A stretch of 63,471 bases of DNA, the filler included, from Collodictyon triciliatum (Eukaryota), in the NCBI GenBank assembly GCA_043381765.1. It is 22 parts of 22 records of this genome, joined end to end, with 100 filler letters (N's around TTAATTAATTAA, not from the genome) between each part and the next. Parts side by side here need not be neighbours in the genome. Positions count along the whole stretch, not along the records: positions 28,951 to 31,736 come from JBHJMP010008294.1; 21 more parts are not named here. One strand, 5' to 3'. Positions 28,951 to 31,231 of this stretch are shown piece after piece; the first letter of the stretch is position 1, and every line of letters starts with the position of its first letter. The translations under genes were made by a program, and so were the position numbers. Under the pieces are notes generated by a model that had not been told where the DNA came from, searched no databases, and saw only the letters and a list, made by a program, of their open reading frames with translations.

Positions 28951-31231
28951 CAATCATGCAACCTGGTATATCGTGTCTTGTCATATGATTCATATGTGTC
29001 ACTTTTGATAAATTGTATTTTTTATTTTAGGAAATCATTTCTTTTTGTCTTGCTGGATTCGCTCTTTGTGAGGAACGGGAGGTGATACAGGTATTCATAT
29101 GTTTCTTAATGGTCGTTTTTGCTAATCACAATATCTTATTAGATACGCGTTCTCTCACCAGCTGCTGACACAATCCATCAAAGAGCGATACTTTAAGGAT
29201 GAAGCATACACAAAAAATGAAGCACGTGAATATGGATTGTGGCTGCTGGGTGAATACGGCTCTGACACTGAAGACAAGAGTGTTATTGCCGAAATATGCC
29301 ACAATCTGAGGATTTCGAGCGAATATGATAAACTGGTGGACTTTATGAAGAGTGAAAAGGTTAAATTATGGATTTTTTTTTTATTATTGTGACATGTGTT
29401 GTAATGTAGTCTTTAGGTTGTAGTGAGCATGCTGGATGGCAACTATCGCTTCGAGTTTTATGAATGCTGGAGAGAGCTGAATAAGAACGGATATGACCAC
29501 AAAGCTATCTATCGCGAGTTGGCCAAGGTGATAAAACTCAATTACATGTGTCAATATTGCATTTATTTTAATGGTATGTACAACAGCAACTGAATCCAGC
29601 TGGCTCTGCGTTGGTTGATTACTTTCAAGAAATTCAAGAGAATGCCTTTTTGATTCCGATTCTTGAGCACCGCATCTCTGTTGAGACGGATGAAGGTTTG
29701 GCCATTTGTTTTGGATTTTATGGGCGTGTCACTAACTTTTGGTTTATCTATATTAGGTTCGAATAGCAAAAATCTGAATTTTCTAGGGTTGGTTTATCTT
29801 CAACTTGGAAAGTATGATTTATTTGATTATGTATTTATTTTCATTTATCATTTAATTGGCTTATTATCTAATAGTAATGAAAAAGCACTGGAGTACTACC
29901 ACAAATCATTGGAAATCCGACTGAAAGTGTTTGGAGAAATTCACCCTGATGTCGCCACGTCATATAATAATATTGGAAATGTTTACAATGACCTTGGAAA
30001 GTATTTTTTATTTGATTATGTGTTTATGTTTATCATTTATTTGACTTATCGTTTAATAGGAATGAAAAAGCTCTGGAGTACTACCACAAATCATTGGAAA
30101 TTCAACTGAAAGTGTTTGGAGAAGTCCACCCTGGTGTTGCCACTTCATATAATAATATTGGAAGCGTTTACTATAACCTCGGAAAGTATCTTTTATTAGA
30201 CTATCTGTTAATGGTTATTCTTCATTAACTTACAATTTAATAGACATGATAAAGCTCTGGAGTACTTTCACAAATCCCTGGAAATCCGACTGAAAGTATA
30301 TGGAGAGAATCACCCTGATGTTGCCAAATCGTATAATAATATTGGAGAAGTTTTTCGTCAGCTCAGGAAGTATTTTTTATTTTATTGTATTTATATTCAT
30401 CCTTTCGTTAACTTATTATTTAATAGACATGAAAAAGCTCTGGAGTACTACCACAAATCATTGGAGATTAAGCTGAAGGTGTTTGGAGAGAATCACCCTG
30501 GTGTTGCCGCTTCATATAATAATATTGGAGCCGTTTACTATAACCTTGGAAAGTATGTTCATTTGATTATATTTATGCTTATCCTTTCATTAACTTACAA
30601 TTTAACAGGTATGATAAAGCTCTGGAGTACTACCACAAATCACTGGATATTACACTGAAGGTGTTTGGAGAGAATCACCCTGGTGTTGCCAAATCATATA
30701 ATAATATCGGAAGTGTTTACAATAACCTCGGAAAGTATATTTTATTTGACTATCTGTTAATGTTTATCCTTCCTTAACTTATTATTTAATAGGAATGATA
30801 AAGCTCTGGAATACTTTCACAAAGACCTTGAAATTACACTGAAAGTGTTTGGAGAAATCCACCCTAGTGTTGCGGTGTCATACTACAATATTGGAAATGT
30901 TTACGGTCAACTCGGAAAGTATCTTTTATTTGATTATATTTATGTGTATTCTTTCATTAACTTATTATTTAATAGGAATGACAAAGCTCTGGAATACCAC
31001 CAGAAATCACTTGAAATTCGACTGAAAGTGTTTGGAGAAGTCCACCCTGATGTTGCCGCTTCATACTACAATATGGGTAGCCTACTCATGAGCCAGAAGA
31101 AATACCAAGAGGCTGTCGACATGTACCAAAAAGCCAACACGATATTCAAGACTGTCTATGGCGCAAACCATCCCCATACGAAGCTTTCAGAAAAGCAAAT
31201 GATGAATGCACAGAAGATGCTGACCCGATAA
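28951..31231 (+). CDS. NPHP3/NACHT(STAND)-like protein C-terminal half with 42-aa TPR repeats; 5' truncated
   Basis: Spliced frame: WKSFLFVLLDSLFVRNGRYAFSHQLLTQSIKERY (winged-helix FxH motif), helical linker, then ALEYYHKSLEI.LKVFGE.HP.VA.SYNNIG.VY..LG repeats; all exons in frame to TAA at 31229-31231. Confidence 0.88.
29812..31080 (+). repeat. Tandem intron+exon cassette array (~184-nt unit)
   Basis: 126-nt exons at 29875-30000, 30060-30185, 30244-30369, 30427-30552, 30609-30734, 30793-30918, with seven homologous phase-2 introns of 56-63 nt. Confidence 0.93.

Follow-up and report, generated by a model that had tools for sequence, protein, structure and literature searches.

A tandem array of 126-nt TPR exons in a predicted NLR-like gene fragment of Collodictyon triciliatum

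A gene layout in which each tetratricopeptide repeat (TPR) occupies its own exon is already known from brown algae. In Ectocarpus, according to the available part of the account by Zambounis et al. (2012, PMC3341825), 13 NB-ARC loci carry a TPR domain drawn from 124 exons of 126 nucleotides (nt), each coding for 42 residues; the introns of these genes hold inactivated TPR exons, and site models applied to the 124 exons indicated positive selection. This precedent was invoked in the initial annotation of a stretch of DNA from the CRuMs protist Collodictyon triciliatum (GenBank assembly GCA_043381765.1), and the Ectocarpus exons bear it out. The stretch, called the window in what follows, measures 63,471 nt with its filler and consists of 22 contigs of about 2.8 kb, descending in size and joined by N44-TTAATTAATTAA-N44 linkers; genes on either side of a linker are not genomic neighbours. 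The gene considered here, referred to as the TPR gene, lies on the plus strand of one of them (28951-31736; 2,786 nt; JBHJMP010008294.1). This contig is rather probably the 3′ part of an NLR-like STAND gene, assigned by its sequence to a DUF4062(NIR)-NACHT-winged helix-TPR family, whose repeats would derive from the old tandem duplication of one exon-intron module.

Several features are shared with the algal genes, as far as the available part of that source describes them: a STAND NTPase family (here through the relatives presented below) with C-terminal TPRs, a 42-residue unit coded by one 126-nt exon, the possibility of shuffling in frame, and a multi-gene family proposed to comprise candidate pathogen receptors. 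The search motif used for Ectocarpus starts with G-K-Y, so that the exon boundary would apparently fall in the same A/B turn, to within about one residue. Unlike the genes of the alga, a stramenopile, which carry NB-ARC, the relatives of the CRuMs gene have NACHT with an N-terminal DUF4062; the introns, of 56-63 nt, belong to the repeat unit and leave no room for dead cassettes, and the seven units show no excess of nonsynonymous change, whereas positive selection was reported for the algal exons.

The DUF4062-NACHT-TPR protein family is itself already reported as widespread in eukaryotes. In the available parts of two preprints (bioRxiv 2026.05.01.722283; 2026.09.04.749371), DUF4062 is described as a TIR-like NADase of bacterial anti-phage systems and of human TEP1; it adjoins NACHT in NWD1, NWD2, TEP1 and NPHP3, an NLR-like build is ascribed to most DUF4062 proteins of eukaryotes, and exon-per-repeat structure goes unmentioned in these parts. 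The relatives of the TPR gene share with NPHP3 and TTC41 the order DUF4062, NACHT, helical or winged-helix region and TPR, the last followed in some by WD40; unlike NPHP3, TTC41, NWD1/2 and TEP1, the gene has a linker with detectable relatives, by phmmer, only in Diphylleia rotans and in six short contigs.

A further comparison is offered by a class of fungal NLRs, characterised, in the available part of Dyrka et al. (2014, PMC4986451), by internal repeat identity above 85%, repeat-number polymorphism and concerted evolution. Like fungal NLRs with conserved TPR, ANK or WD repeats, as far as they are described there, the gene and its relatives would combine a STAND module and 42-residue TPRs of the kinesin light chain (KLC) type with a scaffold that hardly varies and a concave face that does. 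The literature searched for Diphylleia with NACHT yielded no relevant paper, and nothing relevant turned up for TPR exons of 126 bp. The repeats of fungal NLRs are not known to be split one per exon. Zebrafish NLR-B30.2 genes reportedly follow the same design principle, forming a large NLR family with each repeat on one exon; these are leucine-rich repeats (LRRs) rather than TPRs, and the organism is a vertebrate.

Relatives of the TPR gene and predicted domain order

The contig begins inside the TPR gene, which is therefore truncated at its 5′ end. The gene model comprises 13 exons and 12 canonical GT..AG introns, with a frame open over 522 codons up to a TAA at 31229-31231 (Table 1); the predicted partial protein of 522 residues spans the end of a winged helix and some 150 residues of helical linker, after which come eight 42-residue TPRs of the KLC type and a cap. 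A phmmer search with exon 3 against 1.84 billion representatives returned 16 proteins. The ten long matches are ten different Trinity genes from the transcriptome of D. rotans (EukProt), a member of the Collodictyonidae within CRuMs, while the other six are short open reading frames (ORFs) on contigs of 552-839 nt. One of the short ones, P0015, shows 86% identity and continues into the same intron; judged by its sequence, it is a close paralogue or orthologue of the TPR gene. The 180 residues of the spliced front part align with D. rotans proteins at 45-49% identity over 165-182 residues; the alignment is free of gaps over all five exon junctions and therefore constitutes an independent validation of the splice model.

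In six of the ten long relatives, a NACHT, AAA_16 or NPHP3_N domain lies 130-150 residues before the match and TPR_12 follows it. DUF4062 is N-terminal in P0022, P0024, P0040 and P0035, the last two being longer isoforms in which the P-loop NTPase domain is also present, and the consensus of the relatives' alignment contains ESGxGKxS. WD40 repeats follow the TPRs in two relatives, P0017 and P0020. The match lies near the protein start in P0020 and P0021, for which no NTPase family is listed, and P0025 has no Pfam match at all; for P0017 and P0020 the Pfam results comprise the best 25 families. Within the same bounds, the NTPase-type families listed for the relatives are NACHT, NPHP3_N, AAA_16 and nSTAND1, with no NB-ARC among them.

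The initial annotation had noticed a winged-helix motif upstream of the repeats, and the R-Y-x-F-x-H-x-L-L of exon 3 indeed aligns with the invariant R595, Y596, H600, L602 and L603 of the alignment of relatives (A2). An AlphaFold2 model of P0022, built from a 13-row alignment and having a mean pLDDT (predicted local distance difference test) of 81.8, places helices at 538-548, 555-566 and 573-586, a beta hairpin at 589-598 and a further helix at 601-611. By this comparison, the contig sets in within the third of these helices, so that of the winged helix it has only the last helix and the wing; the TPR gene would thus carry the end of a winged helix, with its conserved histidine, behind an NTPase that lies off the contig. 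Foldseek with the P0022 model, a result that concerns this relative and not the protein of the window, retrieved the archaeal STAND-TPR protein 6mfv (E 8e-11), followed by RPP1, SAMD9, Avs3, Apaf-1, MalT, NOD2 and NLRP3. By sequence, the P0022 TPRs match kinesin light chain structures (E ~1e-17), and residues 30-179 of P0022, the DUF4062 part, match a solved fragment of human TEP1 (11gz_A, E 1.6e-17, by sequence alone); the latter match connects the protist family with the group of TEP1, NWD and NPHP3.

Since the full-length relatives read DUF4062, NACHT, winged helix and TPR, the name NLR-like STAND-TPR, given to the gene in the initial annotation, is supported by homology, and the fold of the P0022 model agrees with it; the gene's own P-loop, in contrast, is off the contig, which starts after the NTPase position and so leaves out both the NTPase and the N-terminus. 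In the mechanism proposed for the protein, a ligand bound in the TPR groove would release the NACHT switch, and oligomerisation would then activate the N-terminal effector, which in the relatives is a TIR-like NADase domain.

Other searches added little. Pfam found no family in the three upstream exons alone, Adaptin_N (E 0.058) staying below the cut-off. A word-based protein search with exon 3 confirmed none of 29 candidates among longer proteins, and its near matches comprised only P0015. With the last exon, 14 of 22 candidates matched at 35-63% identity, six of these listing the CHAT family PF12770 besides TPR families; this search, with a rotifer as its one named source, is uninformative on the upstream domain. 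In JGI metagenome contigs, 139 stretches matched the pattern from a single-protein query and none was confirmed. The only match to a 23-nt degenerate cassette pattern, positions 1-1502 of JGI contig L001, was rejected as a chance match in an intronless bacterial gene, where TPRs are fused to an adenylate/guanylate cyclase domain, as judged by eye from the sequence.

RNA evidence was taken from Logan contigs of four public runs, two of them labelled metatranscriptomes. The runs contain small shares of the query words (0.05-0.15) and give no grounds for a statement on habitat or strain, low depth in parts of the array carries no evidential weight, and Logan contigs cannot phase long repeats. Three upstream splice sites (introns 2, 3 and 4) were confirmed exactly by joints with GT..AG, namely 29081|29143, which skips 61 letters, in contigs of all four runs, 29359|29417 in runs X3 and X6, and 29527|29587 in runs X1, X3 and X6. 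A near-identical exon 1 is spliced to exon 2 in RNA contigs (loose ends at 29030) and aligns to D. rotans proteins, and the junction between exons 2 and 3 is crossed without a gap in the alignment to P0021 and P0022. In the array, RNA contigs pass from cassette to cassette without an intron. Beyond the stop codon, depth extends for about 200 nt, reaching bin 31369-31461 and falling to zero in the next three bins.

The cassette array, its age and its variable columns

The six exons of exactly 126 nt described in the initial annotation are present in the gene model, and they are bounded by seven introns of, in order, 63, 59, 58, 57, 56, 58 and 57 nt, each lying in phase 2, between the second and third bases of a codon. 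In Tandem Repeats Finder the array has a period of 184 nt, with 6.7 copies, 80% matches and a score of 1402. The stated phase 2 holds for all seven cassette introns; the five upstream introns are of phases 2, 2, 0, 0 and 1. The symmetric 2-2 phase means that, as had been claimed, any cassette can be removed or inserted in frame. The mutual homology of the cassette introns was also well founded: their mean identity with each other is 0.79 (range 0.68-0.88, 21 pairs), against 0.62 with the five upstream introns of the same gene (35 pairs) and 0.66 with shuffled copies (420 comparisons), and thus exceeds the effect of a T-rich composition. Recurrent motifs are GTAT in seven of seven introns, TTTGATTAT (exact in four of seven), ACTTA (six of seven) and TTTAATAG (five of seven).

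The coded repeats belong to the KLC type of TPR, with a period of 42 residues, the GxxHPxxA loop and the signature residues of the motif. Of the 42 columns, 25 do not vary among the six 126-nt units; all three single TPR exons tested exceed the curated Pfam cut-offs for TPR_12 and TPR_10, and the last exon matches the same families (E 3.3e-23 and 7.7e-17, respectively). The proposal of one 42-residue TPR per exon is correct as to the period and needs amending as to the register, which by Pfam coordinates is shifted by half a repeat: each exon codes for helix B, the GExHPxVA loop and helix A of the next TPR, and the introns fall in the A/B turn, between helix A and helix B. As for paralogues and orphan cassettes, for which a search had been suggested, close relatives exist and are expressed; a tblastn search with the spliced protein found no cassette outside the coding exons of the TPR gene in all 22 contigs.

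The synonymous distance between units is about 0.55, their mean amino-acid identity 76.5% (69-88%, 15 pairs of the six units), and little is left of the excess identity of the cassette introns over the background. These three values indicate that the array is an old tandem duplication and not the product of recent amplification or strong homogenisation. A module of about 184 nt, made of the 126-nt exon and an intron of about 58 nt, would have been duplicated in tandem; purifying selection would then have retained the scaffold of 35 columns, and some seven columns at the surface, of which five lie on the concave face that binds ligands, would have drifted at a roughly neutral rate, so that each repeat would offer a different binding surface. 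As phase-2 introns flank every cassette, gain, loss or exchange of cassettes between paralogues in the germline would be neutral for the frame, and this layout has probably favoured diversification of the family. Identity is 88% between introns 3 and 6 and 75% between the exons after them; for introns 4 and 7 the corresponding values are 86% and 70%. This mismatch could be a trace of an old duplication of a three-unit block followed by faster change of the exons, or noise. The differing similarity relations along exons and introns are a hint at past exchange, and on 42-nt pieces they are within noise.

The residues that the initial annotation listed at the variable positions are all correct; their description as hypervariable is not supported. 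The repeats as a whole have a ratio of nonsynonymous to synonymous change (dN/dS) of 0.27-0.30, which separates into 0.12-0.16 on the 35 scaffold columns, under strong purifying selection, and 0.96-0.99 on seven columns chosen for their variability. Five of the seven are in the top ten for variability among 23 repeats of the Diphylleia family. According to the available part of Magliery and Regan (PMC1261162), the most variable TPR positions are 2, 5, 9, 12, 13, 33 and 34, all on the concave ligand-binding face; columns 29, 36, 39, 40 and 26 correspond to positions 2, 9, 12, 13 and 33, a mapping based on canonical TPR numbering and not on a model of the window protein. When the seven concave positions are named beforehand, the nonsynonymous difference per site (pN) is 0.405 and the synonymous one (pS) 0.388, with pN 0.080 on the other 35 columns; the concave face is about five times freer than the scaffold and changes at about the neutral rate. 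In a neutral star-tree simulation (300 runs), the share of runs reaching the observed pN was 0.013 with the seven columns taken as given, and 0.99 when they were the top seven, by variability, out of 42 neutral columns. With seven units, neither site models nor a decision between relaxed constraint and diversifying selection is within reach.

Competing explanations

A number of observations weigh against the proposed NLR-like STAND gene. The NTPase and effector of the TPR gene are off the contig and are assigned from relatives at 45-49% identity. Six of the seven variable columns are also in the top ten of 83 repeats from unrelated TPR_12 proteins, and the concave positions named beforehand show no nonsynonymous excess. 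The identity of the copies (maximum 88%) is on average below the 85% threshold of the fungal class, as far as the source describes it. None of nine D. rotans isoform pairs differs by an internal 42-residue block, their differences being confined to the ends; where repeats are concerned, Trinity isoforms are no reliable evidence in either direction. Human NPHP3, moreover, is a ciliary protein. In the available part of one preprint (bioRxiv 2026.05.01.722283), purified human NPHP3 is reported to be without NADase activity.

Some of these points would suit the same molecule in a housekeeping role, such as an NPHP3/TTC41-like scaffold, for instance at the flagellar base of a biflagellate protist. 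The exon layout would then be the fossil of an old duplication and the variable columns an ordinary TPR surface tuned to a single partner, as the age of the units, the intron identities, the absence of excess at the concave positions and the generic nature of the columns for TPR_12 would all permit; in addition, relatives match NPHP3_N and TPR_NPHP3, and the NPHP3 domain falls just short of the cut-off (P0027). A housekeeping orthologue, however, would be expected as a single conserved copy, whereas at least ten paralogous linker genes are present in one transcriptome, with ends that vary between TPR and TPR plus WD40 and with DUF4062 in four proteins, and many close variants are expressed in the four RNA runs. 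On balance a housekeeping scaffold seems unlikely, without being negligible.

The initial annotation had gone further than an NLR-like gene, proposing a diversifying receptor system fed by cassette recombination or exon skipping. The age of the duplications and the lack of a nonsynonymous excess lend no support to such a system. Active or somatic shuffling, or programmed exon skipping, is possible at the locus, and in its general form this explanation holds that the cassettes of one locus are combined by regulated skipping, or else recombine often by way of their homologous introns, and that one gene or a few would in this way give many receptor forms. It would fit the symmetric phase and uniform length of the cassette exons, the homology of their introns, the shift of nearest neighbours along the unit, and the exon shuffling and alternative splicing that the available part of a study on brown-algal ROCO genes reports (PMC11378527). 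Segment-wise mosaicism on 42-nt pieces, by contrast, is within noise, and the D. rotans isoforms offer no internal differences of one repeat.

The RNA contigs bear most directly on this question. At a placement threshold of at least 92%, 162, 171, 16 and 54 contigs were obtained per run, many of them with other cassette orders, and some join cassettes that are not adjacent in the gene. Almost every cross-cassette joint in the rows shown carries 1-27 letters foreign to the TPR gene, with shorter sides of only 21-52 letters on short contigs, and because of these letters the joints are attributed to transcripts from close paralogues whose cassettes are ordered differently. For three joints (29698 to 30978, 30186 to 30428 and 30541 to 29876) the foreign letters are unverified; the second of them would fit the skip of one exon save for one letter, on a side of 24 letters. 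Among the contigs of the four runs there is no junction that joins two exons of the TPR gene exactly while skipping others, and none that proves exon skipping. Generation of a repertoire from this locus is regarded as quite improbable. Similarly slim is the chance of the most ambitious version, namely a diversified intracellular immune repertoire of NADase-NACHT-TPR receptors in a heterotrophic protist of the deep-branching CRuMs, with arms built from interchangeable 126-nt cassettes by mini-intron recombination or combinatorial skipping, that would represent a second independent invention of the brown-algal design, here equipped with a TIR-like NAD+-depleting effector.

That the gene does not work at all, being a repeat assembly artefact or a decaying pseudogene fragment, is hardly credible: the assembly is very fragmented, its contigs of about 2.8 kb often end in microsatellites and the gene is incomplete, but the frame of 522 codons is uninterrupted over 12 canonical introns, the scaffold columns are under strong purifying selection and RNA contigs at least 99% alike exist.

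At present the locus offers a clear example of the duplication of an exon-intron module and reveals no new mechanism yet. If the family of NLR-like genes to which it is assigned serves defence, CRuMs would possess NLR-like sensors that combine a TIR-like NADase effector with modular TPR arms; the one-repeat-one-exon layout would then have arisen in a STAND clade besides the brown-algal NB-ARC genes, a point relevant to the frequency with which eukaryotes converge on receptors built from cassettes.

Coordinates of the gene model and other contigs

Table 1. Features of the TPR gene on contig 28951-31736, in window positions
Feature	Position	Strand	Content and basis
Exon 1 (partial, at contig start)	28952-28965	+	Part of the third helix of the winged helix; gene model
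Exon 2	29031-29081	+	End of winged-helix helix 3 and first wing strand; gene model
Exon 3	29143-29359	+	Second wing strand with conserved R-Y...H motif, then helical linker; phmmer, alignment
Exon 4	29417-29527	+	Helical linker; RNA joint and alignment
Exon 5	29587-29695	+	Helical linker; RNA joint and alignment
Exon 6	29757-29811	+	Linker end and helix A of first TPR; first cassette-type intron follows
Cassette array	29812-30975	+	Six 126-nt exons, seven homologous phase-2 introns
Cassette exons	29875-30000, 30060-30185, 30244-30369, 30427-30552, 30609-30734, 30793-30918	+	126 nt each
Cassette introns	29812-29874, 30001-30059, 30186-30243, 30370-30426, 30553-30608, 30735-30792, 30919-30975	+	GT..AG, phase 2
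Last exon, 256 nt	30976-31231	+	Seventh cassette-like unit, one divergent TPR, capping helix, TAA
Probable 3′ untranslated region	31232-31461	+	RNA-contig depth; limit approximate, as contigs cannot show the true end

An Rfam scan of the whole window gave no match. Eukaryotic genes on other contigs include those for a kinase, LRRs, WD40 repeats and an oxysterol-binding protein, and the presence of eukaryotic contigs of about 2.8 kb alongside a bacterial one marks the assembly as fragmented and mixed. The contig at 43386-46170 has, on the minus strand, an intronless ORF (43418-44551) with at least seven WD40 repeats of a very uniform scaffold (SVAVTPDGSKIVSGS...TIKIWN type). It may be the tail of another NLR-like gene, since P0017 and P0020 run from TPRs into WD40 arrays. 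The bacterial-looking contig, 8684-11477, holds ORFs at 8628-9353 and 9360-11426 on the minus strand; its 688-residue protein combines Ig/fn3-like repeats with a type-IX secretion C-terminal sorting domain (Por_Secre_tail), which suggests that the assembly includes DNA of a Bacteroidota contaminant, prey organism or associate.

On contig 2896-5689 (minus strand), a protein kinase domain (3274-4251) and a stretch of LRRs (5013-5513) lie on the same strand and may belong to one LRR-kinase or ROCO-like gene. A long ORF at 47658-49054 on the plus strand codes for cysteine-rich repeats resembling those of ephrin receptors and, after them, several hydrophobic segments; it is cut by the end of its contig. 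An additional run of 10 N occupies 17905-17914. Microsatellites stand at many contig ends, such as (AATTTT)n at 28800-28850, before the linker at 28851, and (TTTTTTG)n at 31837-31905, after 31836, and they probably broke the assembly.

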